Assembly: GCA_031414955.1 (NCBI GenBank)
Contig: JANOQV010000102.1
Span: forward strand, 23,774 to 87,773
From: Pedosphaera sp.
GTDB taxonomy: Bacteria > Verrucomicrobiota > Verrucomicrobiia > Limisphaerales > SIBH01
Length of the DNA: 64,000 nt
Direction of reading: 5' to 3'
Below the pieces are notes generated by a model, which worked only from the letters and a program-made list of their open reading frames with translations, had not been told where the DNA came from and did not search any database. The position numbers and the translations under genes are program-made. Positions within the stretch are counted from its first letter, which is position 1. The number at the start of each line of letters is the position of its first letter. This document shows positions 27,320-47,794 of this stretch, piece after piece.

Positions 27320-27372
27320 GACGCTCGAAATCTTAAACCGCGTGTCAACCGACAGAAACGTCCGGCCCTGCC
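27123..27372. repeat. 250-bp direct repeat, copy 1 (upstream region plus 5' half of the CRR6-like gene)
   Basis: Colinear with 28130-28379; about 19 mismatches by manual count, mostly at third codon positions. Confidence 0.92.
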
Positions 27373-27500: not shown

Positions 27501-27534
27501 CCCCCGGAGTTCTCATCTCCGGGGGTTTTGTTTT
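27501..27534 (+). terminator. Intrinsic terminator-like hairpin
   Basis: CCCCCGGAG-TTCTCAT-CTCCGGGGG followed by TTTTGTTTT. Confidence 0.5.
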
Positions 27535-27869: not shown

Positions 27870-28326
27870 AAATCTGAGGGTTGTCGAAGGATAGAGATTC
27901 TGTCGCTGACCATTGCTCCCAGCCGAACAAAAACTCGATGTCGTATTCTTCAAGCGACCTCCGCACGACCTTCTTGAATCTGGCATCACGAAAAAGCAAC
28001 GGGGCGCGACCATCCTCCCAAACGAAGTTGTTCCGCCATTTCTCCTGCTCCTGCTTAGACTTCGGCAAGCCCGCCAACCGAACGGCATCGACAATTCCCA
28101 TGTGACGGGTCAGTCGGCTTTTCGCGAGGCGAACCTCTGGGATGCAGTGAAGCTCACGCGGGTCATCGTCGTAGCCGTCCACGCAGAGCACCATGCTGCC
28201 CATCATGGCGCGAAGTCGACGGCCCGTGGGCAGCTTGTCGGGCGCGTGCAAACCGAGGAAGTGAGAAAAGTCCCCGCGCTCCACTTTCGACCGGCTGAAT
28301 GTGTAGACGATGAGGTCGGTGACCAT
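27844..28326 (-). CDS. Chimeric ORF: CRR6-like N-terminal half plus unrelated C-terminus
   Basis: First ~66 aa nearly identical to 26816..27319, diverging abruptly after IPEVR. Confidence 0.6.
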   Translation of the reverse strand: MVTDLIVYTFSRSKVERGDFSHFLGLHAPDKLPTGRRLRAMMGSMVLCVDGYDDDPRELHCIPEVRLAKSRLTRHMGIVDAVRLAGLPKSKQEQEKWRNNFVWEDGRAPLLFRDARFKKVVRRSLEEYDIEFLFGWEQWSATESLSFDNPQIYDFGHAET

Positions 28327-30729: not shown

Positions 30730-30918
30730 CTACGCCTTCCTGCTACGGAGCTTGGTAACGTCGGCTCGCGAATACATGAAGGCGTTGCCATTCTTCGTGA
30801 AGCGCAGCTTCCCTTCGACCCGCAGGTGCATCAACTCGCAGGACTCGACACCCAGCGCCCTCTCGACCTCCTTGCTGGTCAGCCAGTCGTTGGGTTTCTC
30901 GGCCTTGTCCATGTTCAA
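30730..30918 (-). CDS. Small excisionase-like HTH protein
   Basis: NDWLTSKEVERALGV...LRFTKNGNAFMYSRADV; paralog of the N-terminus of 29231..29794. Confidence 0.65.
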   Translation of the reverse strand: MNMDKAEKPNDWLTSKEVERALGVESCELMHLRVEGKLRFTKNGNAFMYSRADVTKLRSRKA

Positions 30919-33900
30919 CTAGGTGTGGAGGACGACGCCTGCTTCAAAGCCTCGACGACTTGCGCGAGGAAGTCGCTGTCTACGAAAGGCACCTGACCGA
31001 AAATAATTTCGGGTGCGCCTTCGAGCTTCGCGGCGAGATGGCCCTTTCCGAGAAGACGCTCCGCGCCTTTTTCACCGAGCGCGATTTCGGACGTGCCTTC
31101 GCCGTCCACGCGGAGCACGAGTCGATTGCCGAGGTTCGCACGAAGCTGCATCGGCATCACGTTGGCGTCCGGGCGCTGCGCTGCGAAGACCAGCGAGATG
31201 CCTGCGGCGCGGGCCTTCACGCCGAGTCGGCCAACGATGTCCGACACGGCATCTGAGTATTCTGGCGTCATCATCCATTCGGCGAACTCGTCATGGATGA
31301 CCCAGAGAAAAGGCAGGCGCTCGGTCGCGGTCGGCTTCTTGTTCAGGTCAAAGATGTTTGAAACCTTGTTCTCCTTGAGGACGGTGTAGCGCCGGTTCAT
31401 CTCAGCGACGAGTTCATTCAGCTTTTGGATGGCCGTGTCCTGCGCGTCGATGATGCCGCCTTGCAGGTGGGGCAAGCCCTCGAACGCGAAGTAGTCCACG
31501 CCCTGCTTCGGGTCGATGAGCACGATGCTCGCCTGCGCGGTCGTGTTGGTGCAGGCGATGCCCAAGATGATGTTCTGCATCAACACGGACTTGCCGCTGC
31601 CGGTAGAGCCAGCGATGAGCGTGTGCGGCGCGTTGGATTTCGGGGAAATAAACAGCGGGCTGCTGTCTTCCTCGCGCACCGCAATCAGCAAGTCGTGATT
31701 ACCGTTCGTGCAGTTCGGGTTCCAGTTCTTCCACACGTCAGGCAGATGCAGCACACGACGGTTCGGGCGAGCGATGGCGATGGACACGATACCGGGTTCA
31801 GCACGAACGGAGATGACGTTCAGCCCGTGAGTGGTCAGGAATTCCGAACGCCGCTTGAGCACCTGCTCCACCGTGAGGTTGGCGCTGCCTTGGAATTTCA
31901 ACAGCGCCGCGTTGGGCGTAAGCGCCTTCGTCAGCAACTTCGATTGAAGCTGGAACTGCTGCAACGCGCCTTTGCACTTGCTCTCAACCTGACGCAGCCA
32001 TTCCTCGTCGGCGGCGCTGTCTTGTGAACCGCCCTGATAACCGGCGACGAGCTGGCCCACCTGCGGGAACGGCCATGTGCCACTGGGCGCGGCTTGAGGT
32101 GCCGGTGTGGGTGCAGACGCGAGAGCGGGTGCCGGAGTTGGTGTGGGCATTGCAGGAGTAGTTGGGGTTGTCGGCTGCGACGAACCGCTGCCGCCTGAGC
32201 CGGGCGCGATGCCGCCAGTGTTCGGTTCCACGTCCACAGTGCGGCGGTGAACAATCTGGATGCGGTCTGATGGCTTGCGGTAGGTCTGCTCAGTCCAGAT
32301 GTCGCTGCCTGCGTTCGCTTTTCGGATGGCCGTTGGGTTCGCATCCTTCGCGTAGCTCAACACCAACTCGCGCAGCCGTGCTCGCGAGAAGACTTCCTGC
32401 CACGAGTCATCGGACTCTGCCACGGTTACGAAGTCGGAGCACTCCGGCGAATCCGATGGGCCGGATACGAAGACGTGCGAGTAGCCGCGCATGTGAATGC
32501 CGCACTCACCGCAACGCACGGCCTTTCGCCATGCGGACAAATCAATGGGCGAATTCGCCGGAAACTGGATGCCGTTCAGCATTAAGTCGGAGAAGCGTGA
32601 CAGCCACAGGTCACGGTCGAGCCGCTGCGGGTCACCGAAGATGGCGTCGTGGATGCGACGAACCGTGTCGCGCAGTTGCTTCTGCGACTCCTTCCGCTTG
32701 GCGGAGAGGCTGGCGTGGTCGATGTATTTGGACTCTGCCACGATGACCGCCAGTTGGAGTTTTCCATCCGGCGTCTGCTCCGGCGTGAGCGCGAGGATGT
32801 CGGCAATCTGTTCTTCGCGCTGGCCCAACCACTCGGCGTAGTCATCGAGGAAATACCAACCGAAGCGCCGCGTCGCACCAAGCTCGTGACGAATCATGTA
32901 GCGGCTGAGGACGACGCCCATCAGTTCACTGGCATTGCGCCCACGCTTGGCGGCACGCAGCACGATGTCGCCGGAGATTTCGTTCGCGTCGTTGATGAAC
33001 TTCTCGGTCAGGTCTTTGCACTCGGCATCGCTCAACTCAAGGTTCAAGTCCTTCACGCGGCCCAGCACCATCGAGCGCAGCAGACTTAATGAAGCCGTCG
33101 AAGAAATGAGAATGTTGCGCCCCTGCGTCGCGCCCTGCTTGTAACGGATGACCTTCACGTTCTGGTTCATCAGTTGGCGGCGGTCGAGAAGCTCATCGTA
33201 GTTCACCACCCAGTTTCCAAGGTTGTGAATCTCTTTGAAGATGCTCGCGGTCTGCGGGTCGTTGAAGTCGAGTTTGCGGGCCGGGAGCAGGCGCTTGCCT
33301 TCAACGCAATCCCAGTCGCCCCGGATGAACGTCGTCAGCGCGGTGATGAACGACCAGCCCTCTTTCATTTGCACGGGACAGCACAGGTAGACGACGGATT
33401 TCATGTCGTCGCTCGGCGAGGGACGCCGCCGTGACCAGCGGGCCGGGATGAAGGTCGCGGACTCCACAGGCACGCAGGTTTCCGTATACCACTCCATGCC
33501 CGCGTGTCGGGCGATGACATCCTGCAAGAACACCATGTCCGCCGGAGGGCCGTCCTTCGGGTCGGGCACAGGCGCTTGGTCGGCCATGATGCCGATGCGG
33601 AGCCGGGCCATGAAATCCTTCGCGGCCTCGCTGGACACAAACGAGTCTACGTCCGCGTCCGAGGACTCGATGATTTTCTCGTAGAGTTCACGCAGCTTCG
33701 CTCCATCGCGGTGACGGAGGATGATTTGGCAGCGCATGTCATCCTCGTCCTCGTGAAGCTCGTTCATCTTGTCTACGAGCGAATACGGCAACCGCGCCGA
33801 GTCGCAGTTGTAGAGGACGACCGAGAGGTTGGCCCGCTCGTGCGGGTAGAGGGACAGGAACCGCTTCGTCAAATCCACGATGAGCGTGGATGTCTCCGCC

Positions 33901-36191
33901 GGACTTTCGTTCGTGTCGTCGTAGCCGTCGTTGCTGATGACCGGGGACTCGTGAAGACTGTAGTCGAGATGATGGTCGGTCAGCGAAAGCATCTCCGGCT
34001 TCTTGTCGTGCCAGCCCAAGACGATTTCCGGGTAGTAGGGATGCGCGAGTTCCGCCTCAAGCTCATTGAAGAACAGCGGCGCGTCGCCGAAGAAAACATT
34101 TTCAGCCGTCAACAAATACCGGAGCAGCGATGAGACTTGGAGCGCCTTGTTCGCCATCGCCGAGAGCCGAAGTGGATGCCACGGCGCGACGATGGCGGTG
34201 ACACGACCGCCGTCTACAATGACGGAGCCGATTTGCAGTAACGGACGCAGCAGGCTCTCGCGGTTGCGGTCGCCCTTCGCGTCCCGGCAGATGGCATCGA
34301 GCAACACACCATAGTCTTCGGCCTGCTTGACCATCCCCGCGCAGGCCAGCCCGTCCTCGGCGAAGCCCTTCACCGCCGCTTGGTAGCTCTGCTGGAATGC
34401 TTGAAACAAAGCCAACAGCTTCGCGCCAGTCGCCTCGGACACGAGTCCGTCCTGCTGGGCCTTGATGAGATTCGCAGGCCAGAGCAGAGAGATGTCGTTC
34501 TCCTTTTTGTAGGTGGAGACGAACGAGCCACGGTCTTGACCGTAGGCGGGATAGAGCGTGCGGACGTTGCGGAGGTCGAGCGACTGGTAGCGGCCCTTGC
34601 CGCTCACTGGTTCCCGGTTCACGCGACAGAGCATCAGCGGATGGTCGGCGAGCCGCAGCCAATCACCGGGAAACTCGCTGGCGATGGAGTTCGGGTCATG
34701 CGACCAGACCAGTTGCTTGAAGTAGGTGTCCGTCGTCCCGGTGGAAAGCTCGACTTCGAGTTCAATCAGGAACTTCAACTGCAACGCGGCCTTGGCGGCG
34801 GATGCGTTGCGGAAGGGCTTCGTTGCTCTCCGCCACTGGTCGGTCAACGCCTCGAAGTTCAGCAAGTCGCCAACGTCCCATGAGACACGATTTCCAAAGA
34901 GCGCCTTCAATCCGTGATAGCGGCGGGCGAAGAACAGTCCGGCATCTTCGTTGAGTTCCTTGAGGTCTTTCTTCGTGCGCCGGTCGCAGGTGATTTTCAG
35001 ACGACGCTTGGACGATGGCGCGTCGTCGTGGTCGAACAGACGCTCCAAGCAAAGCGTGAGGCCAATCAGGAAATCCTCCGTCTCGATGGGCGCACCGAAG
35101 ATGAATCTGTCCCATTTAGACTTGAGCGCCGCCAACTCTTTGAGTTCGTTCCGGTGCCGACGATAAAAGTCTTCGTCCTCATCCTGCGCTTCGGTGCGGT
35201 TGTTCTCCCGGAGGCGCTCAAGGTAGTCGCGTTCGTCCGCCGTCAGGAGCGACTCATCGCGCTCCTCGTAAAATTCGAGCGTGGCTTTGCCGAGGTTGAA
35301 CTTCTCCTTTTTCAAGCCGTCGAACAACGGCTTCACCATTTCCCACTCGCAGTGAGCAAGGTCGGCAGCCTGCTGGTTCCACCCGCTCGCGGCAGCGATG
35401 AAGGCTTGAATGGTCGGGTGAATCTCGTCCGGGATGGATTCCTTCACCTTCACGAACGACTCCGACAAATCGTCTTCGAGCAGCAACGCTTGCGTCGGAG
35501 TCTGCTTCACAAGGAAGCACGCTCGCTTCTTGATGACCTGCGCGAAAAGCGCCTTCCACCGGGACGTGTGACCGGCGTTCTTTGGCGTGAGTGACGAAGC
35601 GAAAGCCGTGTCTTTCGGGACTTGCAGCGCGGGCAAGGCCACGCCCAGCGCGGCAAGCACGGGCTGACCGTCCTCGATGGCCACGCGGGTTTGCAAGATG
35701 TAGGCGGCAAGCCGGTCGAGGGCGAATGAACGGACTTCCAGCAGACCTTCCAGCGCCTTCACCCACCAATGCTGATGGTCGTCGAGGATGGGCAGACCCT
35801 CGGCAGCCCAGTTCACCCAGAGCGCAGGATGTGCGAGAAGTTCCGGTGCGCCAATCGGCACCAGTTCTTTGAGCGACTGCTCTTCGTCGTCGCCGGTGTT
35901 GGCTACGAGCAGAGCGGATTTCGCGCATGAGGCGTTTCGGAAATACGTCGTGCGCTCATTCGTGAGGATGTGCGCGGGCAACCCGTGTTCACCGACAAAG
36001 TGGATGGGCAGTTTGATGTCTACCAGCGCAGCGAGCGAAGCATCGTCAAGGATGGCCTTGGCGACCGCAGCCGTCTGGTCGGCGCTCAGGCAATCAAGTT
36101 GGTAACGGGCGACGCCGGTCGAATCATCTTCTGTGAGACGGTCGCGCAGATAACTCGCGACGACTTTGCCAATGAGTTGGTCGCTGGTCAT
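30915..36191 (-). CDS. sspH: SspH/DptH-like large protein with C-terminal FtsK/HerA ATPase
   Basis: Walker A AGSTGSGKS, Walker B VIHDEFA, AQRP, GAERLLGKG; upstream PD-(D/E)xK-like DILAL...ESK. Last of a three-gene set following sspBCD. Confidence 0.7.
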   Translation of the reverse strand: MTSDQLIGKVVASYLRDRLTEDDSTGVARYQLDCLSADQTAAVAKAILDDASLAALVDIKLPIHFVGEHGLPAHILTNERTTYFRNASCAKSALLVANTGDDEEQSLKELVPIGAPELLAHPALWVNWAAEGLPILDDHQHWWVKALEGLLEVRSFALDRLAAYILQTRVAIEDGQPVLAALGVALPALQVPKDTAFASSLTPKNAGHTSRWKALFAQVIKKRACFLVKQTPTQALLLEDDLSESFVKVKESIPDEIHPTIQAFIAAASGWNQQAADLAHCEWEMVKPLFDGLKKEKFNLGKATLEFYEERDESLLTADERDYLERLRENNRTEAQDEDEDFYRRHRNELKELAALKSKWDRFIFGAPIETEDFLIGLTLCLERLFDHDDAPSSKRRLKITCDRRTKKDLKELNEDAGLFFARRYHGLKALFGNRVSWDVGDLLNFEALTDQWRRATKPFRNASAAKAALQLKFLIELEVELSTGTTDTYFKQLVWSHDPNSIASEFPGDWLRLADHPLMLCRVNREPVSGKGRYQSLDLRNVRTLYPAYGQDRGSFVSTYKKENDISLLWPANLIKAQQDGLVSEATGAKLLALFQAFQQSYQAAVKGFAEDGLACAGMVKQAEDYGVLLDAICRDAKGDRNRESLLRPLLQIGSVIVDGGRVTAIVAPWHPLRLSAMANKALQVSSLLRYLLTAENVFFGDAPLFFNELEAELAHPYYPEIVLGWHDKKPEMLSLTDHHLDYSLHESPVISNDGYDDTNESPAETSTLIVDLTKRFLSLYPHERANLSVVLYNCDSARLPYSLVDKMNELHEDEDDMRCQIILRHRDGAKLRELYEKIIESSDADVDSFVSSEAAKDFMARLRIGIMADQAPVPDPKDGPPADMVFLQDVIARHAGMEWYTETCVPVESATFIPARWSRRRPSPSDDMKSVVYLCCPVQMKEGWSFITALTTFIRGDWDCVEGKRLLPARKLDFNDPQTASIFKEIHNLGNWVVNYDELLDRRQLMNQNVKVIRYKQGATQGRNILISSTASLSLLRSMVLGRVKDLNLELSDAECKDLTEKFINDANEISGDIVLRAAKRGRNASELMGVVLSRYMIRHELGATRRFGWYFLDDYAEWLGQREEQIADILALTPEQTPDGKLQLAVIVAESKYIDHASLSAKRKESQKQLRDTVRRIHDAIFGDPQRLDRDLWLSRFSDLMLNGIQFPANSPIDLSAWRKAVRCGECGIHMRGYSHVFVSGPSDSPECSDFVTVAESDDSWQEVFSRARLRELVLSYAKDANPTAIRKANAGSDIWTEQTYRKPSDRIQIVHRRTVDVEPNTGGIAPGSGGSGSSQPTTPTTPAMPTPTPAPALASAPTPAPQAAPSGTWPFPQVGQLVAGYQGGSQDSAADEEWLRQVESKCKGALQQFQLQSKLLTKALTPNAALLKFQGSANLTVEQVLKRRSEFLTTHGLNVISVRAEPGIVSIAIARPNRRVLHLPDVWKNWNPNCTNGNHDLLIAVREEDSSPLFISPKSNAPHTLIAGSTGSGKSVLMQNIILGIACTNTTAQASIVLIDPKQGVDYFAFEGLPHLQGGIIDAQDTAIQKLNELVAEMNRRYTVLKENKVSNIFDLNKKPTATERLPFLWVIHDEFAEWMMTPEYSDAVSDIVGRLGVKARAAGISLVFAAQRPDANVMPMQLRANLGNRLVLRVDGEGTSEIALGEKGAERLLGKGHLAAKLEGAPEIIFGQVPFVDSDFLAQVVEALKQASSSTPS

Positions 36192-37726
36192 CGGGCCTCC
36201 GCGTGATACGGGTTGACGACGTAAGCGCAGCCATCCGACAACCGGCGCAACAAGCCCAAGCTGCCGAGCCGCTGTTCAAGGCGACGCGAGTTGCCCTGAA
36301 ATGCCTTCTTATCGAACTCATCCTTCGAGAGCACCTGCTCGGCCTGCTTGTCCCCGAAGACCAATCCGTATCGCGAGTGTAGACGAGCAAGGAACTGATG
36401 AAGCTCGATGCGCTTTTCGACGTTGGCGAACAGGAGCGTCTTGAGCAGCGCGTCCGTTGGTGCGTAGCGCAGCTTCACGGTGCCGCGCTTTGACACGAGG
36501 CCGATTTCACGTCCGTAGTTGCGGTGGATGTTGGCAACGTGCTGGCGATGGCGCTTCATGGCATCTTGACGAAGCCGCGAGATGAGTTCTCCGGCATCCG
36601 ACGGGCCGTCGTAGTCCTCACCCCAACGCACTTGCTCTTTGAGAATCCGTCTACACTTCTCGAACGCTCCACTCTCGGTGATGGCCCGCTGCCAGTCGCC
36701 GGACTGCTCGATGTTGTTGATGAAAGTCTCAACGGCCTGTGCGGGCAGCAAGTTGTTCGACTGGTAGAGTTCGCAGGAAACCTCCCTGACGAGCGTCTTC
36801 TTCGGTGCGACCACTTCACAGATGAGCGTGAGCGGCGTGGGCGAGGCGAGAAGCTGTCGTGAAACGGTCAACTGGTATTTCAGCAGGTGCAGCCCGGCCA
36901 GATTGACCAGATGCGGATACACGTCGAAACCCGGAATGTTCAGCCGCAGCACGGCCAGCCAGTCGTCGGCAAGGTCATCGAAGCACGGGTGGCTTGCGTA
37001 AGGCAGAAACGCATTTGCGCGTTCGTTGCTGATGCCTTCGTCAGCGGTCGGTTGCAGGCACCGGATGATGGAATCCCATGTCTTGTCCGTCTTCGCCAAT
37101 CGTCCTTTGAGAGCGGCAAGAAGCTCCTGCTTGCGGCTCGTGCGGGAGAGCATCAAGTAGAGCATCTCGCCCGTCCTGCCGAAGAAGCGCCGGTCATTGG
37201 TCGAGGCGTTGTTGTCCAAGTCCTCGTAGAGACAATCGCGGCCATACGGAAAAACGAACTTCGATGTCCACCGCTTGTTGCTGTTCACTTCAAGGCTGGT
37301 CGAGCGCACCAACGACACGACTTCGCAAAAATCCTCGAACGAGTGGAAGTGGTCTTCGAGGAAGCCGAACTCCGGGTGATTGAGTCCCGTCGCCGCCGAC
37401 TTCATCCGCCGCAGCCATTCATCCCAACGGTTGGCGTCGTTGGGAAACGCCAGCCTGATTTCTGGCAGATGCGGATTGTTGAAGAGGATGTTCCGAAGGT
37501 AGAGCCGGTGAGCAGCGCGATACTTCAACTCGTTCGGTCTGCCCTGTTCGTCAAAAGCACGGCCCTTGTCGTCCTCGTGTGTGAACACGTTCAGGAACTC
37601 AAGGAACACAAACCACGGCAACTGCTCGTCGTAAAGGCGGTGTCCCCATATCGCCTCGTCCACCCACATGGAGGACGATTGCTCCAAGCTCTCCGGCGGC
37701 GGCAAGGTTTGTGGCAGCGCGTTCAT
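36188..37726 (-). CDS. sspG: SspG/DptG-like protein
   Basis: IWGHRL, RYAPTDALL, C-terminal LGLLRRLSDGCAYVVNPY; lies between the F- and H-like genes with ATGA overlaps. Confidence 0.65.
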   Translation of the reverse strand: MNALPQTLPPPESLEQSSSMWVDEAIWGHRLYDEQLPWFVFLEFLNVFTHEDDKGRAFDEQGRPNELKYRAAHRLYLRNILFNNPHLPEIRLAFPNDANRWDEWLRRMKSAATGLNHPEFGFLEDHFHSFEDFCEVVSLVRSTSLEVNSNKRWTSKFVFPYGRDCLYEDLDNNASTNDRRFFGRTGEMLYLMLSRTSRKQELLAALKGRLAKTDKTWDSIIRCLQPTADEGISNERANAFLPYASHPCFDDLADDWLAVLRLNIPGFDVYPHLVNLAGLHLLKYQLTVSRQLLASPTPLTLICEVVAPKKTLVREVSCELYQSNNLLPAQAVETFINNIEQSGDWQRAITESGAFEKCRRILKEQVRWGEDYDGPSDAGELISRLRQDAMKRHRQHVANIHRNYGREIGLVSKRGTVKLRYAPTDALLKTLLFANVEKRIELHQFLARLHSRYGLVFGDKQAEQVLSKDEFDKKAFQGNSRRLEQRLGSLGLLRRLSDGCAYVVNPYHAEAR

Positions 37727-39621
37727 GGCATGATTTCAACAGCCCGTGGGTCGGGCGTTCCTTGCTCGGTCAGAGATAGCAGCGTGAGCGAAATCGTGGA
37801 ACCCGCTGGTGCTTCTTCCTTGGCCTGACGCTTGGCGTAGGTGGCAATCAGCTGACTCTTGAACGCGAGCAAATCTTCGTAGCACTCCTTGGAGAAGCTG
37901 GCGGGCAGAGCGCCTTCCACCGCGATGCGCGACAGGAACTCGTAGCGGATGAGCGTCAGGTTGAAGTCTGCGAAACTGTCCGGCGTGAAATAGACGGACA
38001 GCAGCACCCGCCCGCTGGGCGGGTCAAAACGCAGCATCACTTTCTCGCCCTTGCTCGGCTCTACCGACACGCGTTCCACGAGGATGCGGCTCACCTTGGC
38101 CTGCGAGTAGTTGCCGCTCGTCGCCAAGAAAAGTTCACGGTCGCTATTGATGAGCATTCCCGTGAACACGCGGTTCAACCCCTTGACCAAGCGAGACACG
38201 AGCGGGCGCTTCACCACCGCGCTGCGTTTCAGCACGTCTACGATTTCTTCGAGGTATTCGCCGGCGAATCGGAACACGGTCAACTCCCACAGCTTCAACT
38301 CGCGCTCGGCCTCCTTGGGGATTTTGAAGAACAGTCCGCGGCGCTGGGCCACGAGCATTTGCAGAAACGCCTTGTCCTTGTCCTCATCCTCACTCGTGCC
38401 CTCTATGTATTCGTGTTTGGCGGCGTAGAACCGTTCGTCAGCACCATAGAACTTGTCCTGCTTGACGAAGGTCTTGAAGTAGCTGCCTAGATGTTCGTCG
38501 CCATCGCCGAAGATGAGCAGGTTGTCTACGCGGTTCGATGTCTCGTAGCCAATTTGAAACCGCTCCAAGAAATCAAAGATGGTGATGGACTGCCGCCGGA
38601 TGTCCGAGAGGTTCGCGCCGAAGATGTTGTTCTAGAGACTGGCCTTGGAGACGGTGCCGGCCGCGATGAGCTTCGGCACGTCGCTTGGCAGCATCAAATG
38701 CTGGCTGGCATCAGGATGACCGAGTACAGCGTTGGAGAGCAGCAGGAGAATCTGGCGCACTGGAACGTGAAGGCCATTGTGGTCGCACAATTCCAGCAGC
38801 GACCGCAGCCGCGCTTTGACCAACGGCGTGCCGAGCAGTTCGTAGTTCTGGCGGATGGGGCACTTCGGCCCGAACACGTCGTTCTCACCGGGCACGCCCT
38901 GCTTGAGTTCATCCCAGCCCGGATGAGCGAGGAACTTCTCGATGGCGCGGTCGAACAACTCGGCGGAACTGGCGCGGCTCAGGTTAAAAAATCGTAGACG
39001 CACTCCGGGTTGCTCCTGCCGGTCTTCGACCAATAAGTCCTCGAACACCTGCCGCGCCCGCTTCACGTCATCGGTGTCCTTCAAACGCCGGAAGGACTCA
39101 ATGAGTTGCCCGTCGTTGGCCGCGATAAGAAAAATCTCGTCCGCCTCGGCGTTGAACAACGAGTGGCAGAACTTTTGGAGCAGTGCCTCCTTGTCTACAT
39201 CCCACTCCGCTCCTTGCTGCGGTGCCCAACCGCTCAAGTCGCGAATGAAGTGAATTTGAACAGAACGGTACAGACTGGGTTCTTGGGAGTCGGGCCACTT
39301 GGCCCTGTCTTTGGGATAGTGGAAGCGGATGGTCAGGTAGGGGTTGTCGGATGCCCAGTCTTCTTCCTTCCCTTGGAGTGCCTTCCAAACCTGCCGACAC
39401 AAGTGCGTTTTGCCGTCACCCGCCGTGCCGGTCAGGATGACCGAAACGGGGTCAGCCGTAGCCTGATTGAAGGAGTCTGCGATGCGCTTCTGATACGGAT
39501 GCTCAAAGTCGATAGGGGCGATTCCCTGACGACGAGCCGACCGCTGAATCGTCTCGTCATACATGTTGTCATTCCGAGGCACCGGCCCGTAGTGACGAAG
39601 GAATTTCAGCCAGCTACTCAT
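37723..39621 (-). pseudogene. sspF: SspF/DptF-like P-loop protein interrupted by an in-frame TAG (38632-38634)
   Basis: ILTGTAGDGKTHL, IAANDGQL. The junction reads KASL*NNIFGANLSDIRRQSITIFDFLERF; both ORFs share one frame (1899 nt total). Confidence 0.68.
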
Positions 39622-40283
39622 TTATCCAAGCTCCGGCTCACGCATTTGCTCACGGCATCGGCAAAGTGTTGGTGAACGGAATCGTCCGTGGAGAAACCAC
39701 GGGCCTTTTTTGACGTGAAGTAAAGGCAGCCTAAAGCTGCATACCCCGCCTTTTTCGACTTCTTCTTCAACTCATCGAAGTCGTCCTTGGTGCAACATTC
39801 CGCGAAGAGGAAGGTGTTCTTCACGCCGAACTCTTTCATCTCTTTCGGATAGTCAGTGTCGACAGCGGTCAGGATAGACTTGCAACTGACAATCGCATGC
39901 GCCTTGGCAGCGTCGATGAATCGAAAATCCATTACGGGGTGTTCCTCGCCGTTCCACTTATCTACGTATCCCTTTTCGTGAATGATGATGTCGCATTCGC
40001 GGGAGCATGTGGCTCTATCCTTGTTCAGAAGGTGTCCCCAGCTTACTTCTACATTCTGGCCGGACAGCATCCCGCGAAGGATGTAGATTACGCGGGCCGA
40101 CAGGCGCAACCCTCGCACGAAGCGGAGGATTTCACCTTCGCGTTTTCCGGGTGAGACGCGAACATCCGGCGGTGATAGACGAAGCCCTTGAAACTCGGTA
40201 GCAAGCTGGTTGAATTTGCCGTAAGCCAAGTGCGCTCCAAATTTGTGCGCTGGACTGCCTTTCTTTTTTGCCACTTGGGTCAT
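39618..40283 (-). CDS. Putative PD-(D/E)xK-like nuclease (DUF6602-like)
   Basis: GKREGEILRF...SRECDIIIH...AIVSCKS pattern; lower GC. Confidence 0.55.
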   Translation of the reverse strand: MTQVAKKKGSPAHKFGAHLAYGKFNQLATEFQGLRLSPPDVRVSPGKREGEILRFVRGLRLSARVIYILRGMLSGQNVEVSWGHLLNKDRATCSRECDIIIHEKGYVDKWNGEEHPVMDFRFIDAAKAHAIVSCKSILTAVDTDYPKEMKEFGVKNTFLFAECCTKDDFDELKKKSKKAGYAALGCLYFTSKKARGFSTDDSVHQHFADAVSKCVSRSLDK

Positions 40284-40963
40284 GCGTTCTTCGATGAGGA
40301 AATAATTGTCTGGATGACATGGGTGACCGGAGTGCCTAATTCCTTCGCCGCCTCGCCAAGCGCCTCCTTGCCCTTTCGAGTCAACACTAGCCGACCCAGT
40401 GCGCCTTGAACTTCGACGCGGAGAATATCATCTCGCGGTATCTGCTCTTGAAACGCTCTAAGCAGGCTCGCCTCGTCGTGAGAACCGCGAATGACAAATT
40501 CGGCGATATACTCCCTTTGCGTCTTACTCCGCTTGACGCGCTCCAACACATCCTTCATGGAGTCGCTGACGCTTTGGTTCAGTTCAACAATCGCCCGGAC
40601 GTCAGAAGTGTCGATTTCTCCAGCAGCCAGAGCCTTCGCAACGACGTTTTGGTCGCCTGCCGAAATCTTGGCCAAATGCGCCGCTGCATCAACACTGTCC
40701 AGCACGCGGCGCTCAAATAGCTTCTGCACTGCCTTGGAAAGCTGTGTAACGGCGGAAAACTGCTTGAGCATTTTGGCAGAGAGGCCAATCCGTTCGGCGA
40801 CCGCTGCGTGACTTCCCAACGTCGCGACCGCCAACTCCAATTTGTAGGCGATTTCAGTCAGCGGGAACGGACGCTTCTTGCTTCGAGTGGAGGCGATAAG
40901 CACAGCGATGGCCTCATTTAGCTCCTTCTCGCTCGCCTTGCCTCCGGATGGACGCGACTTCAT
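40280..40963 (-). CDS. ParB/KorB-type HTH protein lacking the N-terminal CTPase domain
   Basis: AVAERIGLSAKMLKQFSAVTQLSKAVQKLF...AAHLAKI resembles the ParB HTH region; ATGA overlaps on both sides. Confidence 0.6.
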   Translation of the reverse strand: MKSRPSGGKASEKELNEAIAVLIASTRSKKRPFPLTEIAYKLELAVATLGSHAAVAERIGLSAKMLKQFSAVTQLSKAVQKLFERRVLDSVDAAAHLAKISAGDQNVVAKALAAGEIDTSDVRAIVELNQSVSDSMKDVLERVKRSKTQREYIAEFVIRGSHDEASLLRAFQEQIPRDDILRVEVQGALGRLVLTRKGKEALGEAAKELGTPVTHVIQTIISSSKNA

Positions 40964-41790
40964 GCCACGAAACCTTGATTCGTCAGCCAATCACTCAGCA
41001 CTTTGGCGGCTAACTCATCAGGCTCCATGTCCATCGACTTGGTAGCCTTTACGAGTGCTTTGCGAAGTTCCTCTGGCAGACTGATGATAAGGTTTTCCTC
41101 GACATGCTGCTTCATCGCGTGGTCAAGAATGTCCTCAGCCGATGCCTTGCGGTCGCGTTCTCCGTAAAAGACAAGTCGGCGCTTTTGGTGAGCAGTTGGC
41201 TTATACTCCATGATGAGTTCCAGCAGTTCCTCAGCCTTGTCCAAATTGTCTTGGGCTGCCCGTATTGCCCTCTTCACGTCGGCGGGAGAAACCTTGTGAG
41301 CTTTGAGCCAACCCTTCATTGCGGTCGTCGCCCGCGCTTCAATCAAAATGAAATCGCGAACTTTCCTCAGCGATAGTCCAGTTTCTTGCGACACTTTGCG
41401 GTCGTTTTTCCCGAACTTGTTGTAGAGATAGGTCACAGCTTTTGCTGTGTCATCATACTCAAGTTCGAGGCGCTGCATGTTTTCTACCAGCGAGCGGACA
41501 ACTGCCTCGGTTTGTGTCAGGTGCCCCACGAAGACTGCTTTAATCTTTGGCCATTCGAGAATCTGCTTGTGGGCCAAGAATCGACGCTGCCCGGAAATAA
41601 GCTCGTATGGAGGTTTGCCGAATTCGCCCATCAACACCACCGGCTGCAACAAGCCATGCCGTTTGATACTTGCGGCGAGTTCATCAAGGTCTTTTGTCGC
41701 GTCGCACAAGCGAACATTGTCGTTACTAACTTCAATGTCCTTTAGCGGAACCTCGAAGATTGCAGATACCTCGTGCTTGGGTAAGCTCAT
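40960..41790 (-). CDS. ParB/Spo0J-like protein (ParB_N CTPase + HTH + RHH-like tail)
   Basis: NVR, LAASIKRHGLLQPVVL, YELISGQRRFLA, SLVENMQRLEL. Confidence 0.85.
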   Translation of the reverse strand: MSLPKHEVSAIFEVPLKDIEVSNDNVRLCDATKDLDELAASIKRHGLLQPVVLMGEFGKPPYELISGQRRFLAHKQILEWPKIKAVFVGHLTQTEAVVRSLVENMQRLELEYDDTAKAVTYLYNKFGKNDRKVSQETGLSLRKVRDFILIEARATTAMKGWLKAHKVSPADVKRAIRAAQDNLDKAEELLELIMEYKPTAHQKRRLVFYGERDRKASAEDILDHAMKQHVEENLIISLPEELRKALVKATKSMDMEPDELAAKVLSDWLTNQGFVA

Positions 41791-41796
41791 AGTAAT

Positions 41797-42606
41797 TTAG
41801 AGTTGGCAAATCAGGCACGCCTTTGGGCCGTCGTCCTCTTCCTCCATCCCGGCCAGCACTTCGACGAGACGCTTGTTGCCACGGTTGGCTTTCCTGCGTT
41901 CCTCGTGTTCGGCGTAGCGACGCTTGATGCCCTCGATTGTGGCTGGCCTGCGTAGCTCGCTCAACGGCATCCCCTGAATCCAAGTGAAGGTCTTGCCGGG
42001 GTCGTCCGTGACCTTCTCGTATTTCATCGCCGCCTCGAACTGTTCGGGATGAGCTTCGAGCAATCGCACCCACTCAATCGGGCGTTGGAAAAAGCAGAAG
42101 TAGCAACCGGAGTGCGTCCGGCCCCACTTGAGATACGGAGGCATCCCGATGCCGCTGTCCTCCAAAATCTTCATCACGCCCGCGTAGCCGATGCCGTCTT
42201 CCTTGAACGGGAACGTCGGCTTGATGTTCGGCTTCGTGCTGATGTAGCCTGTCCTGTCTTCGTCAGCGCGGATGCCGACGTAGCTGACCACCGGCTCATC
42301 GCCGACGTATTCCTCGAAGGGCTTTAATTTGAGCAATTTCGTACACCAACGCATCTGCGGCGAAGGCAGGTAGCCGCCGAACACGTCGAGCCAGTGGTCA
42401 AATCCGGCCTTGGCGTTGAGCCTCACAATCTTCTTGCCCAAGAACGCCTCGACGCGGTTCAGGTATTCATACGTCTCGGTCAACTCCTTGTCGGTGTCGC
42501 AGAAGACGTATTCCATGTCCTTCACCCGGTCGCGCATGTAGAGCGCGAGGGCAGTGCTGTCCTTGCCTCCCGACATGCAGAGGATGTGCCGTGTGAGTTT
42601 GCTCAT
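41797..42606 (-). CDS. sspD: PAPS-reductase-family phosphorothioation protein, SspD-like
   Basis: SGGKDS, RWCT, GIRADE, SGCYFCF, C-terminal CLIC. Confidence 0.8.
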   Translation of the reverse strand: MSKLTRHILCMSGGKDSTALALYMRDRVKDMEYVFCDTDKELTETYEYLNRVEAFLGKKIVRLNAKAGFDHWLDVFGGYLPSPQMRWCTKLLKLKPFEEYVGDEPVVSYVGIRADEDRTGYISTKPNIKPTFPFKEDGIGYAGVMKILEDSGIGMPPYLKWGRTHSGCYFCFFQRPIEWVRLLEAHPEQFEAAMKYEKVTDDPGKTFTWIQGMPLSELRRPATIEGIKRRYAEHEERRKANRGNKRLVEVLAGMEEEDDGPKACLICQL

Positions 42607-45600
42607 GGTTTTGCTTTTTCAACTTTCTCCAACTTCGACCAGATGGCGCGTGATGCTGCGGCCAGACCGAGGCGCTTGTCCTTGGTCAGCAGTGCTTCAA
42701 ACTCAGTTTGCAGTTCCCGAAGTCGATTCTCTTCGTCCGCTGCGACATGGATGACCTGCTCATGCTCTGTGCCGTTGGCCTGCGTAATGGCGAGCCGAAT
42801 GCCCACGCCGTTCCTCGACGGTTTGCCGTCTACGAACACGATGCTCTCGACACGGTGAAAGCGTGTGGCCAGCGGAGCGAGTTCCTGAACGAACAAATCA
42901 TCTTCGGCGTCGTGCCACTTCGCAGGCGGCTTGAGCGCGAGGTAGCTGCCAAGCGATTCAAGCCAGTCGGACTCCGGCAGGTTGTCATCCATCAGCCGGA
43001 GGCAGAAGGCCCGGAGCTTCGGCTCGTTGACGCCGAGCACGACCTGCTCTGAGCGACGCGCCAGTGCCGACCGGAACTGCTGAAAGGAACCGGGCAGGTC
43101 GAACGCCTCGCGCAGCAATTTCCGTAGACGCTCCTGCAATTCCGGGAACGCGGCCCGCAGTTCATCGAGCGCAGTCTTCAATCCACGGATGAAAGCCTGA
43201 ACCTCCTTGCTTGCGGCGGTGTTGGCCGGGAACGGCTCGAACCCGCACGCTTTCGGCAGGTCGCTGAACAAAAGCTTTGAAGGTTCACGCGCCGCGAGGA
43301 TGGCGTCGCGCACGGCCAGCGCAGTAGACGAGAGCTTCTTGGTGTTGTGAACGTAGGCAGGCAGTTGGGCCACAAAAACGCAGAGCGGCTTCACCACATC
43401 CAGCAGCTCCGTGCGCCGTTCACCAGTCGGCTTGACCTCCAACACACTGAGCAGCTTCTCGAACAGTTCGGCACGGACACCCTCAATCTTGCAGTATTGA
43501 ATCTCGAACCGTTCCGGCTGTTTGGTCAGCACGAGCATGTGCTCGCCGGTCATCTCGCGCAGGAAGCTGCCATCCTTGTAGAAGGCAACGTCCTGTTCAT
43601 GCGCGATTGCGAACGCGGTAAGCAGCAAGGGGATCATTCCGTCGCGCACGCCGAATGGCGGATGCCGCAGTTCGGCGAACAGTTCGGAAATTTTGACGCG
43701 GGCATCCGGTTGGCTTTGCACTACGGCTCGAATTTTTCTGAGCGTGGGCAAGACGTTGCACTTCTTGTCGCGGTTGCCGTGTGGCTCGCCAATGCGCCAA
43801 CCGCCATCATGCTGCTGATGAATTCCCGTGTTCAACAAGACGGAGAGATACATGCTCATCTCCGGCGGCTTCTTGTCTGGATTCATGCCCAGCAGCGGCG
43901 ATTTGCCATCCGTAAACATCTTGAAGACGAGTCGCATCCGCGCCGCCGCCGCCGCCGAACTTAGGTTGCGTCGGTTGACGAGTTCGTTGTGGATGTGCGG
44001 TGCGTCCTCAAACGTGAGGTCACAGATACGCGATAGTTCAGCGAGCAGGTGGCGACCGTCTTTGACTTCGAGCGTCTTGCCCTGATGAAACCACGCGAGC
44101 GAAGTGCGTTCACCGAACTGTTTGAATCCGACCTGCGCCTGAATGCGGCGGTCCAACTGTGCTCGTGCGGCCTGACGCTGCCGCGAGACTTCCTCGCGAC
44201 CGTACTTGTCTCCGTTCAGTTCTGGCGTGCTCGTCGCGACCCAATCCCATCGCTGAACTTCCTGCACCAGGCCAGTGAGGTTGCTCAATGGCTGAGGCAC
44301 CGCCACAAGCCAGTTCCGACGTGCGGCGACCTCGTTCTGTTTCGCAAATTCAAGGGCCACGCTGCGCTCAGTTCCGGTTTCGCAGAGGGGCACGATGATG
44401 ACGCCATCCGCTCCGCCATCCTGCGCCGCGACCAATCCCGGCAGTTCAGCAATCGCGCAATAGCGCACATCGAAGTGTCGCAGGTTGCCGGTCTCGATGT
44501 AGTGCCTTCGGGCGACGATTGGGCGTGATTCGAGGTGCTGCTTGATGATTGATGCGACGCGCCGAGGCGTTTGCACTGCGCGTCGTGCATCGTCCAAGGC
44601 ACGTTCAAGATCAACTGAGGTGTGTGGCCACAGGCAAAACCCGCGACCACGACCACGGTCGTAAAGCACACGTTTGACCCGTTGCAGCTTTTCCAATGCG
44701 GCCCTGACCTGACGCTGCTGGGTGTGGTCTTCACCAGCCACGGCGCACACGATTGTCTCTTCGGACGCCAACAGGTCATCGTTGAGTAGATTCAGGAGGC
44801 CAACGGTTTTGAGTATCTGGATGTGAAGCGGTTCCTCGGTCGCGTAGCTCTCGATGACCGACTCGATTAGGCTCCAATGACTTCGGAAGCTGGCAACCGT
44901 CAGCTTGTGTCCGAAGTTAGTTCGCACGTAATCGAACAGGTTGCTGAGACGATACGGCTCCGCATTTTGCAGACGCTGCTCGCTGAAAGCCTGCAAACCG
45001 AACGGCTCGTTTGATAGGAGGAAGCTGAACAGGGAACGCTCGTTCTGTCCGAAGCGTTTGAACACGCGAATGAGAACGGGCAGCACCGTGGGATGCAGCG
45101 GATAAAGCCGTGCCGCCAAATCCACGAGCGGCTGTCGTTGGGCTGCGCCGAACCATCCGAGTTCGACGGCGCGTTGCATCGCATGACGCAACGGGGACTG
45201 CTGCCCCTTCGGTATGTGGTCAACCTGCACGTTGAGTGCTGAGGCGATGAGATGTCCGACCTGCTCAACCGGCTGATTGAAAACAATTTCCTCGAAGCGC
45301 CCCGCAACCTTTTCCCACTCGCGCTGTGCAGACTGATTTAGCTGGTCGGCGTAGGCGTTGAATCCTTGGTGCAACAGGCAGACGAGGAACAGCGGCTCGT
45401 TGCCGCTGCGCGATGCTGCTTCGGCCAACTTCTGCAACAGGAACACATCCTGTCGATGCGGACTGAGCGCGGCGAACTCAAGGAACTTGCCCAACTCGTC
45501 TACAAGAATCAGGAGGCCGTTGCCCTTGCCATCGGCGATGACTTGGGAATTCGCGTCGAGGATGGCCTCAACAATCTGCTCATCGCTCGGCTCAGTCTTC

Positions 45601-46070
45601 GCTTTGAGCAGTCGCTCAATCACTTCTGCGGGCTTCGCGTTCGCGCCTCTTTTGTAGACGGACGCGATGGCGCTGTGCAGAGCAGTGAGGATGGAAGTGG
45701 CGAGCGGCTTACGGGAGCAGGTGACGAGCACTGGCAGATAAACAGGCCGCGCCACGCCGAGCTTCTTGAAATCGAAAGCCCGCACAATCTGCGGCGCTTG
45801 CCTGTTGTCACGACCGGCAAGGACATTCGCGACCAGCAGAGCGAAGCTGGATTTCCCGGAGCCGTAATCGCCGGTGACGCGCCACGCCCTGCGCCCAGAC
45901 TTTGGCCGAAGGCCGTCGCTGATGCGCTCGCAGCACTCCTGAACAAAGTCAGTCTTCACGTAACCGGAAAGTGCAGCCGAGTCCTGAAAGTCGCGCTCAA
46001 GCTGAACCGAACGCAGGAACCGGCTCTTGATGTTGAAAACGTCTACAATGCGTCGTTCGCCCATGTTCAT
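42603..46070 (-). CDS. sspC: SspC/BrxC-like large P-loop ATPase
   Basis: RSVQLERD, GDYGSGKSS, LVDELGKFLE, YPLHP, QNERSLFSFL. Confidence 0.78.
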   Translation of the reverse strand: MNMGERRIVDVFNIKSRFLRSVQLERDFQDSAALSGYVKTDFVQECCERISDGLRPKSGRRAWRVTGDYGSGKSSFALLVANVLAGRDNRQAPQIVRAFDFKKLGVARPVYLPVLVTCSRKPLATSILTALHSAIASVYKRGANAKPAEVIERLLKAKTEPSDEQIVEAILDANSQVIADGKGNGLLILVDELGKFLEFAALSPHRQDVFLLQKLAEAASRSGNEPLFLVCLLHQGFNAYADQLNQSAQREWEKVAGRFEEIVFNQPVEQVGHLIASALNVQVDHIPKGQQSPLRHAMQRAVELGWFGAAQRQPLVDLAARLYPLHPTVLPVLIRVFKRFGQNERSLFSFLLSNEPFGLQAFSEQRLQNAEPYRLSNLFDYVRTNFGHKLTVASFRSHWSLIESVIESYATEEPLHIQILKTVGLLNLLNDDLLASEETIVCAVAGEDHTQQRQVRAALEKLQRVKRVLYDRGRGRGFCLWPHTSVDLERALDDARRAVQTPRRVASIIKQHLESRPIVARRHYIETGNLRHFDVRYCAIAELPGLVAAQDGGADGVIIVPLCETGTERSVALEFAKQNEVAARRNWLVAVPQPLSNLTGLVQEVQRWDWVATSTPELNGDKYGREEVSRQRQAARAQLDRRIQAQVGFKQFGERTSLAWFHQGKTLEVKDGRHLLAELSRICDLTFEDAPHIHNELVNRRNLSSAAAAARMRLVFKMFTDGKSPLLGMNPDKKPPEMSMYLSVLLNTGIHQQHDGGWRIGEPHGNRDKKCNVLPTLRKIRAVVQSQPDARVKISELFAELRHPPFGVRDGMIPLLLTAFAIAHEQDVAFYKDGSFLREMTGEHMLVLTKQPERFEIQYCKIEGVRAELFEKLLSVLEVKPTGERRTELLDVVKPLCVFVAQLPAYVHNTKKLSSTALAVRDAILAAREPSKLLFSDLPKACGFEPFPANTAASKEVQAFIRGLKTALDELRAAFPELQERLRKLLREAFDLPGSFQQFRSALARRSEQVVLGVNEPKLRAFCLRLMDDNLPESDWLESLGSYLALKPPAKWHDAEDDLFVQELAPLATRFHRVESIVFVDGKPSRNGVGIRLAITQANGTEHEQVIHVAADEENRLRELQTEFEALLTKDKRLGLAAASRAIWSKLEKVEKAKP

Positions 46071-47131
46071 CCCTCCTGCCGGTAAATCTCGTTGAGCAAA
46101 TCGGAATTCTTGCGCTGGCCCTGCCGTCGCACAGTTTGCAGGTTGGCCGACTCTGCATAAGAGAAGAAGTTCTTCGTCTGCCGCGCCAGTGCGTCCACCC
46201 GCGTCCTGATGTCGTCCTCCGGCAATTTGAAAATCTGACCGGGACTGCCGTGGCCGTGGGCAACTTCACGGAGGGGCAAGCTGTTCTCCGATGCCTCGTG
46301 GCGTTTGTTCCAGAAGTCGTTGAGGGCGTAGACGAAAAGTTCAGGAGTGATGTCAGGTTTTTCTTCCCGCCGAAAAGCGTAGACGGGTTCGGCGCGTCCC
46401 TCACCCTTGTCCACGGGACGCTCGCCCACGCGGATGATGAGTCCCAACTCGGTGAGCGGGGAGTCGAGGTTGTCTTCTTGAACCTCACCCTTCCGTCCAC
46501 GAGTCGGAAAGTAGCTGTGGAGGAACGTGTCCCAGTGCTGGTCGATGGTGACTCGCGAGAGCGTTTCATCCTGCCGCCCGGCCTCTTTTTGCATCGCACT
46601 GATGACGACGCTGGGCACCAATTCCGGCTCTTGCCAGCGGTTGAGCAGGTAGTCCCATGCGAGCAACGGACTCTTTACGTCGGTCGAAAGATTCCAGTGG
46701 ATGAGCCAGAGGGTGCGAATGTCCTCCATGAACTCGTCATGCCCGCCCTCGCCCAGCAGCGCCCGGCCAAAATCACTTACGGCGTGCCCTGTTCCTTTGG
46801 TGGTGGTTGTCACCACACCCGCAACTTGCGCCCAAAACCTGATTGAACGGGCCATGTTCTTTCCCACGCCGAGGGCGACCATCGTGTCATCTTCCTCCTT
46901 GGCGGTGAACAGCTTGGGGTTGGCCTGCAAGCCGCGCACGGCCTTGGGCAACCAAGTGTAACGGCACGCAAAAGACTCGTGCCCGGAAATGCGGTATGGC
47001 GTTGTGGCGGTCATCCGTTCAGCGGTTTCAGAGGGTGAGGATGTTCTGCGGCCAGAACGGTGTCCAGAGCCGATTCGGAAAGCAGGCGGTTCCGAGAACC
47101 GCGTTCGATTTTTCATCTTCGATGCACTCAT
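46067..47131 (-). CDS. sspB: DUF4007-family protein, SspB-like (start may be 47014)
   Basis: SGHESFACRYTWLPK, LGVGKNMARSIRFW, TLWLIHW, DSPLTELGL. Confidence 0.8.
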   Translation of the reverse strand: MSASKMKNRTRFSEPPAFRIGSGHRSGRRTSSPSETAERMTATTPYRISGHESFACRYTWLPKAVRGLQANPKLFTAKEEDDTMVALGVGKNMARSIRFWAQVAGVVTTTTKGTGHAVSDFGRALLGEGGHDEFMEDIRTLWLIHWNLSTDVKSPLLAWDYLLNRWQEPELVPSVVISAMQKEAGRQDETLSRVTIDQHWDTFLHSYFPTRGRKGEVQEDNLDSPLTELGLIIRVGERPVDKGEGRAEPVYAFRREEKPDITPELFVYALNDFWNKRHEASENSLPLREVAHGHGSPGQIFKLPEDDIRTRVDALARQTKNFFSYAESANLQTVRRQGQRKNSDLLNEIYRQEG

Positions 47132-47221
47132 TCGCGCCGTGACCCTAGCAGGCGAGGTCGGTCAAATACCGTCCTACCCCTGAACAGAAAAAGAGGGAAT
47201 TTCAGGGCCGTGAGGGCGCAA

Positions 47222-47794
47222 CTACGACCAGCCCAAACCGCGATTCAGCGTGTCGTCAGCAATCCCCATCGCCGCCAAGAGCAAACCGGCCTGCGCCTTG
47301 AGCGCGGGCGGCGCTGCTTGAGGCGGAAGGATTTCGGCGAACCTTCCCTCGAAGTTGCTGAACTCCGGCATGTCGGATACGCCGAAGCCGAAGAAACCTC
47401 CAACGTCCGTGCGGATGATAGGCAGAAACTTTTGTCGTTTTGCGCCCCGCGCTTCCCCGGCCAGCACGACAATCTCCTTGCGGTCGATGGCCTCGGACGG
47501 CGCTTCATCAGGGTCGAGTGTTTCGCCCGGCGCGGCCATCTTCATCCACGATTCCAGAATCAAGACCACGGCAGTCGCGTCGTTGGCGATACAGATGAGG
47601 CGGGCGGTGTTCGCGAAGTTATTTTTGGCGCGGTCATCGCCCATCGACTCAGGCAGGTAAAACAACAAGCCCTTTGGCGACACGGCCATGACGGTGGGCG
47701 GGACGCGGCCAGCTTGCCGCATCGAGAACAGTGCGAAGTCCTCGGCCTGCGCGAGCAGGTCGTCGAGCGTCGTTGGTGTCTGGCCGGATGGCAT
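47222..47794 (-). CDS. Hypothetical protein
   Basis: 190-aa ORF with typical codon usage. Confidence 0.6.
   Translation of the reverse strand: MPSGQTPTTLDDLLAQAEDFALFSMRQAGRVPPTVMAVSPKGLLFYLPESMGDDRAKNNFANTARLICIANDATAVVLILESWMKMAAPGETLDPDEAPSEAIDRKEIVVLAGEARGAKRQKFLPIIRTDVGGFFGFGVSDMPEFSNFEGRFAEILPPQAAPPALKAQAGLLLAAMGIADDTLNRGLGWS

Follow-up and report, generated by a model that had tools for sequence, protein, structure and literature searches.

The 64,000-nucleotide stretch of Pedosphaera sp. contig JANOQV010000102.1 that was analysed here as a whole (the window) carries an ssp operon for DNA phosphorothioate (PT) modification, in which three further genes stand between sspB, C and D upstream and sspF, G and H downstream, as assigned by PADLOC (Table 1). 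Numbered from the sspD side, they encode an orphan ParB-family NTPase (gene 1), a ParB-type helix-turn-helix (HTH) protein (gene 2) and a nuclease candidate (gene 3). We find that this trio is a conserved module that nearly always lies beside a gene of the PT-writer type, and we tentatively interpret it as an optional, PT-gated defence effector.

A conserved trio within an ssp operon

An earlier note on this DNA had described the three genes as a cassette chained by ATGA overlaps and following closely on sspD. The sequence confirms both points, with overlaps at 40960-63, 40280-83 and 39618-21 and with gene 1 beginning 6 nucleotides (nt) past the sspD stop. No sigma-70-like promoter was found in 39300-47600. 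The sequencing runs listed as holders include no RNA run, a result that has no bearing on expression. Homolog searches returned 554, 84 and 151 proteins for genes 1, 2 and 3, and we analysed 80 of 250 GTDB loci obtained with the gene 1 alignment together with 80 of 213 metagenome loci obtained with the gene 3 alignment. The GTDB set split into 26 close and 53 distant loci, one truncated locus (L044) being left out. Gene 2 was present in all 26 close loci and gene 3 in 24 of them; among the 80 gene 3 loci, wherever there was room, gene 2 was found in 63/63 and gene 1 in 47/47. The order of the genes was identical in all 72 loci with the complete set, and the trio is a conserved three-gene module, the co-occurrence elsewhere bearing out its treatment as a unit in the earlier note.

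The named hosts belong to eight bacterial phyla (Planctomycetota, Verrucomicrobiota, Acidobacteriota, Myxococcota, Nitrospirota, Bacteroidota, Thermodesulfobacteriota and Bacillota), and one archaeal bin, which may be misbinned, also carries the family. The module is nevertheless rare and patchy in its distribution: searches did not find gene 3 in 60 relatives or gene 2 in 300 genomes of the same phylum. Cultured carriers are Haloferula sargassicola NBRC 104335 (L016), with a trio like the present one, and Ramlibacter rhizophilus CCTCC AB2015357 (L031), with the alternative third gene described below. Two bins labelled Akkermansia muciniphila (L002 and L003) carry a decayed module, with an intact gene 1 (76% identity), a frameshift in gene 2 and no remaining gene 3, which has been deleted; in L003 sspC and sspD are broken as well, and sspFGH appear intact.

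The trio is visibly lower in GC than its surroundings, as the earlier note had seen, with values of 0.51, 0.56 and 0.53 for genes 1, 2 and 3 against a range of 0.575-0.60 in the ssp genes and a genome value of 0.62. Trio GC was below that of sspC in 30/30 homologous loci, so low GC is a trait of the trio family and can be ruled out as a mark of recent insertion. Nor does the picture of genes spliced in locally hold, since the order sspD-trio-sspF is common to loci of several phyla.

Table 1. The trio and the ssp genes around it (window coordinates; aa, amino acids)
Feature	Position	Strand	Description
gene 1	40960..41790	-	276 aa, orphan ParB-family NTPase (ParB_N + HTH)
gene 2	40280..40963	-	227 aa, ParB-type HTH domain + C-terminal RRM/ferredoxin-like domain, without NTPase domain
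gene 3	39618..40283	-	221 aa, NucC-fold PD-(D/E)xK nuclease candidate
sspB	46067..47131	-	PADLOC SspB, E 3e-102
sspC	42603..46070	-	PADLOC SspC, 1353 bits
sspD	41797..42606	-	PAPS-reductase-family phosphorothioate writer subunit; PADLOC SspD, E 1.7e-111
sspF	37723..39621	-	PADLOC; in-frame TAG at 38632-38634 (codon 330)
sspG	36188..37726	-	PADLOC SspG, E 7e-195
sspH	30915..36191	-	PADLOC SspH, 2183 bits; FtsK domain

The three proteins

Gene 1 matches Pfam ParB_N (E 2.9e-13) and TIGR00180 (74.6 bits, above the cut-off), and its nearest solved relatives are Noc, ParB and Spo0J. The description of gene 1 as a full ParB thus stands for the ParB_N and HTH parts; its ribbon-helix-helix (RHH) tail is a sequence pattern that neither Pfam nor the ESM Atlas confirmed (best score 0.81, a lead only). 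Like the ParB, Noc and KorB CTP clamps, the protein has an HTH behind a ParB_N domain in which most of the residues that bind nucleotide do not vary. All 97 homologs share R27, Q49, G67-Q68-R69-R70, E103 and N104, so that GQRR stands in place of the GERR of canonical ParB: the catalytic Gln is kept (Q49), and an invariant Q68 replaces the catalytic Glu. In Myxococcus ParB the corresponding residue, E93, is the proposed general base, and the E93A variant hydrolyses slowly, closes independently of parS and spreads more widely (10.1101/2021.05.05.442810). Because Q68 sits at this position, gene 1 may be a slow, long-lived clamp. Two observations count against such slowness: DndI hydrolyses ATP with a DGQQR motif (PMC11662687), and ParB folds are able to bind CTP, ATP or GTP (PMC12704722).

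Gene 1 also differs from ParB, Noc and KorB in its company, having an obligatory NTPase-less partner gene and no ParA. The earlier note had seen no ParA in the window, and a motif scan for the deviant Walker A indeed came up empty there and in 41 loci; the ParA-binding motif occurs in 0/97 homologs. A separate, canonical parB lies elsewhere in the same genome. No shared operator or parS-like palindrome was found in the 260 nt upstream of 22 gene 1 starts. A collection of 72,556 plasmids gave no match to gene 1 at E<=1e-15 or to gene 3 at E<=1e-5, and viral contigs gave six distant ParBs, at 26-36% identity.

For genes 2 and 3, sequence searches of solved structures with their profiles returned nothing significant, so fold searches were needed. 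The AlphaFold2 model of gene 2 (pLDDT 91) has a ParB HTH fold: residues 8-124 align with Spo0J (1vz0) at VIA Z 11.7 and a root mean square deviation (rmsd) of 2.8 over 110 positions, and the top Foldseek matches are all ParB/Noc DNA-binding domains (best E 2e-3). The view of gene 2 as a ParB lacking its CTPase domain is supported in this part but not in the tail, which in the model is an RRM/ferredoxin-like alpha/beta domain (residues 149-225 against RRM, a middling Z of 6.5) and not RHH. Genes 1 and 2 align weakly with each other (hhalign probability 11%, E 0.0026). That they form a heterocomplex, as had been suggested, is weakly favoured by complex prediction, which scored 0.48 against 0.00 for the best control, with a contact agreement between runs of at least 94% and a partner pLDDT of at least 82; among pairs scoring 0.60 or less, the mark for a pass was also attained by 18 of 157 solved pairs and by 2 of 215 mismatched ones.

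The model of gene 3 (pLDDT 92.5) confirms the fold of the PD-(D/E)xK-like core that the earlier note had seen, with NucC as the best match (Foldseek E 3.4e-8 and TM 0.60 against 7zgw; VIA Z 14.9 and rmsd 4.3 over 181 aligned positions against 6p7p). BbvCI (Z 10.6) and NgoMIV (Z 10.4) come next, and there is a weak DUF6602 match. In spite of the shared restriction-endonuclease fold, identity to NucC is only 9-13%, and the NucC active-site motif IDx30EAK (10.1101/694703) is replaced by an SCK with an invariant Glu downstream. E96, D98, K135 and E162 are invariant in 115/115 homologs, and S133, two residues before the Lys, is Ser in 113/115 and never Glu. These residues would form a PD-xxK-E-type site (D98, S133-C-K135 and E162, with CD-x34-SCK spacing), in which E162 ends the strand following the SCK strand of the model. 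Since NgoMIV and Cfr10I are PD-xxK-E variants with a relocated carboxylate (PMC551604), the SCK is by analogy compatible with an active enzyme. NucC differs in a further respect: the 143 flanking proteins searched, one for each family and all from within 3 kb, include no CD-NTase or Cas10 at E<=1e-15, and no cyclase or Cas10 was detected by SMODS or TIGR02577 in the organism's own genome, which is 95.9% complete. On the model, a NucC fold without a cyclase and under ParB control would be new.

Neighbours of the module

The trio is linked to genes of the PT-writer type. A locus was taken as well flanked if 1.5 kb or more was available on both sides of the trio (41 of the 106 trio loci, including L003, which has lost gene 3), and 40 of these 41 have a PAPS-reductase/PP-loop gene within 5 kb. 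The linked gene is SspD in 27, a zinc-finger type in 11, DndC in one and another type in one; it adjoins the trio in 37, and the link holds in 32 of 33 clusters at 70% identity. If SspD or DndC alone are counted, 28 of the 41 loci are linked. The partner varies in position, lying upstream, downstream or convergent to the trio. As background, sspD occurs in 8 of 300 genomes of the same phylum, none of which carries the gene 1 family (0/8). The trio is thus nearly always accompanied by a writer-type gene, while the writers rarely have the trio. The suggestion that the cassette is a stand-alone anti-phage system does not agree with this linkage.

What follows the trio is much less fixed. Of the 27 ssp loci, 9 have sspF directly after the trio, and the other 18 have a MORC-like ATPase (11), PbeA (3) or neither (4). 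The trio resembles SspFGH in being a three-gene PT-linked module of the same operon (PMC8092258), but the two share no homology, and each ssp locus of the larger group has the trio without sspFGH. The stop codon in the resident sspF, on which the earlier note had laid weight, is real: homologs carry Tyr (9/15) or Phe (6/15) at this codon, and the same letters, with no differences, are present in contigs of runs X1 and X2, which come from one study and one of which may be the source sample. However, the trio also stands beside sspF genes free of stops and, as said, in loci without any sspF. We therefore reject the stop as the reason for the presence of the trio, to which it is incidental.

Where sspFGH are missing, the ATPase after the trio is an 800-aa GHKL/MORC-like protein without a PADLOC match, seen at L008:12215-14614 and in 11 other loci. 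Loci L012, L124 and L125 have sspBCD and the trio followed by PbeA, with PbeC too in L012 and L125, an Ssp-Pbe pairing. In the short locus L109 the trio precedes a DUF4007/PglZ cluster of the BREX type 4-like kind. The junctions of sspD, trio and sspF are insertion hotspots. Inserted at the same junctions were a TIR protein with a DEDDh exonuclease (L096:6118-7786), a DUF262/NsnA-like protein with a Ser/Thr kinase (L127:379-2437) and an Mrr-type nuclease (L005:10226-11665).

The zinc-finger PP-loop gene directly follows the trio in 23 loci (among L017-L022, L024, L026 and L141-L159), and no sspBC or dndBD was found near it in any of the 23 retrieved stretches, many of which are short. Its product has 300-370 aa, an N-terminal CxxC zinc-finger-like region and conserved RWCC and ECWCG motifs (for example, L017:3754-4770), and representatives match Pfam PAPS_reduct and, weakly, SspD and BrxP. 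The protein is a candidate for a new DNA sulfur-modification enzyme.

The 53 distant loci form a sister clade in which gene 1 (hhalign 100%) and gene 2 (98.7%, E 3e-16) are homologous; GQRR was itself contained in the pattern searched for, so its presence in this clade is no independent evidence. The third gene here encodes a metallo-β-lactamase (MBL)-fold protein of about 340 aa in 48 of the 53 loci. This protein is weakly like SNM1A/DCLRE1A (E 0.027), and a reading of its motifs suggests a beta-CASP nuclease. NucC-fold and MBL effectors were found together in none of the loci. Of the 42 well-flanked loci of this clade, 34 have DndC or SspD within 5 kb, as do 12 of 18 clusters at 70% identity, the commonest layout being dndA-dndC-GmrSD-SNF2-g1-g2-MBL. 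This operon recurs, without dndB, dndD or dndE, across many phyla in L030-L079. In a quick tree, from which 13 rows were dropped for sharing their context at 92% identity or more, the NucC and MBL clades are separate, and each holds both SspD- and DndC-linked members; since the outgroup branch is long, we claim no direction of transfer. In the Nostocaceae loci L071-L073 and L080 the third gene joins a long alpha/beta-hydrolase-like region to an MBL-like domain that is shortened, and the retrieved stretch showed no writer gene. Over both clades, the constant part is a ParB, a ParB-HTH protein and a nuclease-fold protein beside a PP-loop writer, with effector and writer both exchangeable.

In the window, the ssp cluster probably sits on an integrative island, since a tyrosine integrase (52947-54248, -) and an excisionase-like HTH_17 gene (52562-53017, +) lie beside a tRNA-Gly(CCC) (54369-54442, -). 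No direct-repeat att site for this island was found on the contig; 60 nt spanning the 3' part of the tRNA-Gly and its downstream flank were found again on contig C33. Further from the operon, a DinB/IMS Y-family polymerase domain is fused to a DnaE-type polymerase III alpha in a 1450-aa protein (14192-18544, +), whose gene is preceded by a LexA-like gene (13394-14185, +), a label taken from a sequence pattern alone. At 61751-63402 (+) the gene of a Dam-type adenine methylase overlaps a gene of 246 aa that has an HNH-like motif, a possible type II restriction-modification pair. A separate N6/N4 methylase lies at 25628-26788 (+), and a near-identical stretch of about 60 codons occurs in two neighbouring open reading frames at 26816-28326 (-), a local duplication.

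Possible function and significance

The explanation to which we tentatively give preference, at somewhat less than an even chance, is that the trio is an optional PT-gated defence effector working in the manner of SspE and DndI but split over three chains. The ParB nucleotide switch, together with its HTH partner, would sense the sulfur-marked state of DNA and switch on the predicted NucC-fold DNase. Genes 1 and 2 would form a DNA-binding complex in which gene 1 binds nucleotide (CTP most likely, with ATP or GTP possible) and hydrolyses it slowly through the Gln at the catalytic Glu, giving a long-lived clamp. PT marks on host DNA would set the switch, as for SspE and DndI, and the complex would recruit or oligomerise gene 3 in place of the cyclic-trinucleotide signal of NucC. 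The DNase would then cut invading DNA or kill the infected cell.

That a ParB-fold NTPase can be paired with a nuclease next to a PT writer is, in principle, already known. SspE and DndI, the latter a ParB-fold ATPase with an HNH nuclease, are PT-regulated NTPase-nucleases and optional partners of the writer, and the DGQQR of DndI resembles the GQRR of gene 1 (PMC11662687). The parts of the trio come from different families: SspE and DndI are each a single chain of DUF262 (GmrSD_N) and DUF1524 HNH, while the trio has a ParB_N+HTH NTPase with no HNH, a second HTH protein and a nuclease on a separate PD-(D/E)xK chain. None of the three proteins matched the SspE model of PADLOC, and gene 1 did not match the DndB models. 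In PADLOC 2.0 (library of 2023) the hits were weak, the best values being E 7.6e-4 for gene 1 and E 0.003 (PD_DExK) for gene 3, with no match for gene 2. We found no description of the module in the literature covered, which left out most subscription papers and the supplements of PMC10853773 and PMC12839542; the trio is absent from the passages of PMC10853773, PMC12839542, PMC12704722, PMC8092258 and PMC11662687 that were consulted, and 10.64898/2026.07.06.735840 uses ParB as a reporter only. With no name found in the literature or in PADLOC, the trio still appears undescribed, as the earlier note had proposed.

Several points weigh against a PT-gated effector. The linkage to writers is an association and not a demonstration of PT sensing, and the PT-sensing tyrosine pocket of SspE and DndI belongs to DUF262, which gene 1 is not. 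The marks themselves differ, those of Ssp being single-stranded at CCA and those of Dnd double-stranded, so one sensor for both needs explaining. The zinc-finger type (11 of the 40 linked genes) and the PAPS-reductase of L011 were labelled from these loci and are putative PT writers. In L106 neither the 3 kb upstream nor the 10 kb downstream contain a PAPS gene, and none lies within 5 kb in 8 of the 42 MBL-clade loci or in 6 of 18 clusters (70% identity). The loci are related, many MBL loci being alike, so that the counts are not independent. Finally, the weak score of the gene 1-gene 2 complex may mirror a likeness to ParB dimers.

A second explanation, unlikely in our view but the best placed of the alternatives, is that the trio is a guard or backup that stays beside PT operons because it protects them. 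The ParB pair would sense not the PT mark itself but a by-product of infection (nucleotide depletion, degradation of host DNA or inhibition of the writer) and would set the nuclease free, leading to abortive infection. The NucC fold is known from a DNase that kills the cell and is largely non-specific (10.1101/694703), nucleases that stand alone near Dnd genes have been proposed as suicide backups (PMC10853773), and DNA-bound sensors that are freed by genome damage are known from PANGU (10.64898/2026.04.06.716658). An intact trio beside a frameshifted sspC (L013) or sspD (L124), where assembly error is possible, also suggests that loss of the writer may be non-lethal. Against this, sensing of metabolism or damage alone would not need so tight a linkage to writers, and few other defence genes and no restriction-modification methylases adjoin these clusters.

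Only slightly less probable is that the trio serves the writer, the ParB pair targeting, activating or transcriptionally limiting the PAPS-reductase enzyme and gene 3 being a restriction enzyme blocked by the marks, so that trio and writer would make up a compact restriction-modification system. DndB, DpdB and the ParB activators of phage T-dioxygenases are models for such a role, and ParB activators of DNA-modifying enzymes have been shown (PMC13229309). DndB, DpdB and the 5mYOX-associated ParB are like gene 1 in being ParB-fold proteins tied to DNA-modifying enzymes but, unlike it, have no dedicated nuclease partner. The usual scanning subunits are missing both from the retrieved stretches of the 23 zinc-finger PP-loop loci and from 29 of the 34 DndC loci of the MBL clade, which have DndC and GmrSD and not dndBCDE, and restriction enzymes of the NgoMIV type are among the next-best structural matches of gene 3. 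However, SspBCD works without the trio, as the sspD-positive genomes of the phylum without gene 1 illustrate; the sequences upstream of 22 gene 1 starts showed no conserved operator or parS-like palindrome; and a nuclease-fold gene accompanies genes 1 and 2 in both clades alike. The frameshifted writers of L013 and L124, unless they are assembly errors, lean slightly against PT-blocked restriction.

It is improbable that the trio is a PT-independent defence module whose place in the same hotspot as PT operons merely reflects a common descent of the island. The patchy distribution, the concentration of sspD-linked copies mostly in one clade, and the lack of a writer in L106 and several MBL loci would fit such hitchhiking, but the link persists across writer families and positions in both clades while the sspFGH, MORC-like ATPase and PbeA neighbours turn over. 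A partition or maintenance system of an integrative element, with an addiction nuclease, is very improbable in spite of the canonical ParB architecture of gene 1 and the integrase beside tRNA-Gly, given the lack of a ParA-type Walker A in the window and in 41 loci and of the ParA-binding motif in 97 homologs, the canonical parB elsewhere in the genome, and the absence of matches in 72,556 plasmids, with distant ParBs only in viral contigs.

A bolder extension of the PT-gated effector, which we regard as unlikely, is that a nucleotide-driven ParB sliding clamp is an immune reader of PT density over long stretches of DNA that directly activates interchangeable nucleases (NucC-fold or beta-CASP-like) in place of the cyclic-nucleotide signal of NucC, and that with the zinc-finger PP-loop enzyme it would form a new minimal four-gene sulfur-based restriction-modification system without SspBC or DndDE. 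Out of 2,678 sspBCD modules, 196 have sspFGH, 199 have sspE and 36 have both, which leaves most Ssp writers without a known effector (PMC8092258). The same paper leaves open, in the part cited, how self is told from non-self by sparse and uneven PT marks, PT density along the molecule being one possibility. One concrete candidate for a reader of this density is a ParB clamp that is long-lived and linked to a nuclease, and it can be cloned in 2.2 kb. If this is true, a NucC-fold enzyme would be controlled without a cyclase, and the zinc-finger PP-loop protein points to a possible new writer.

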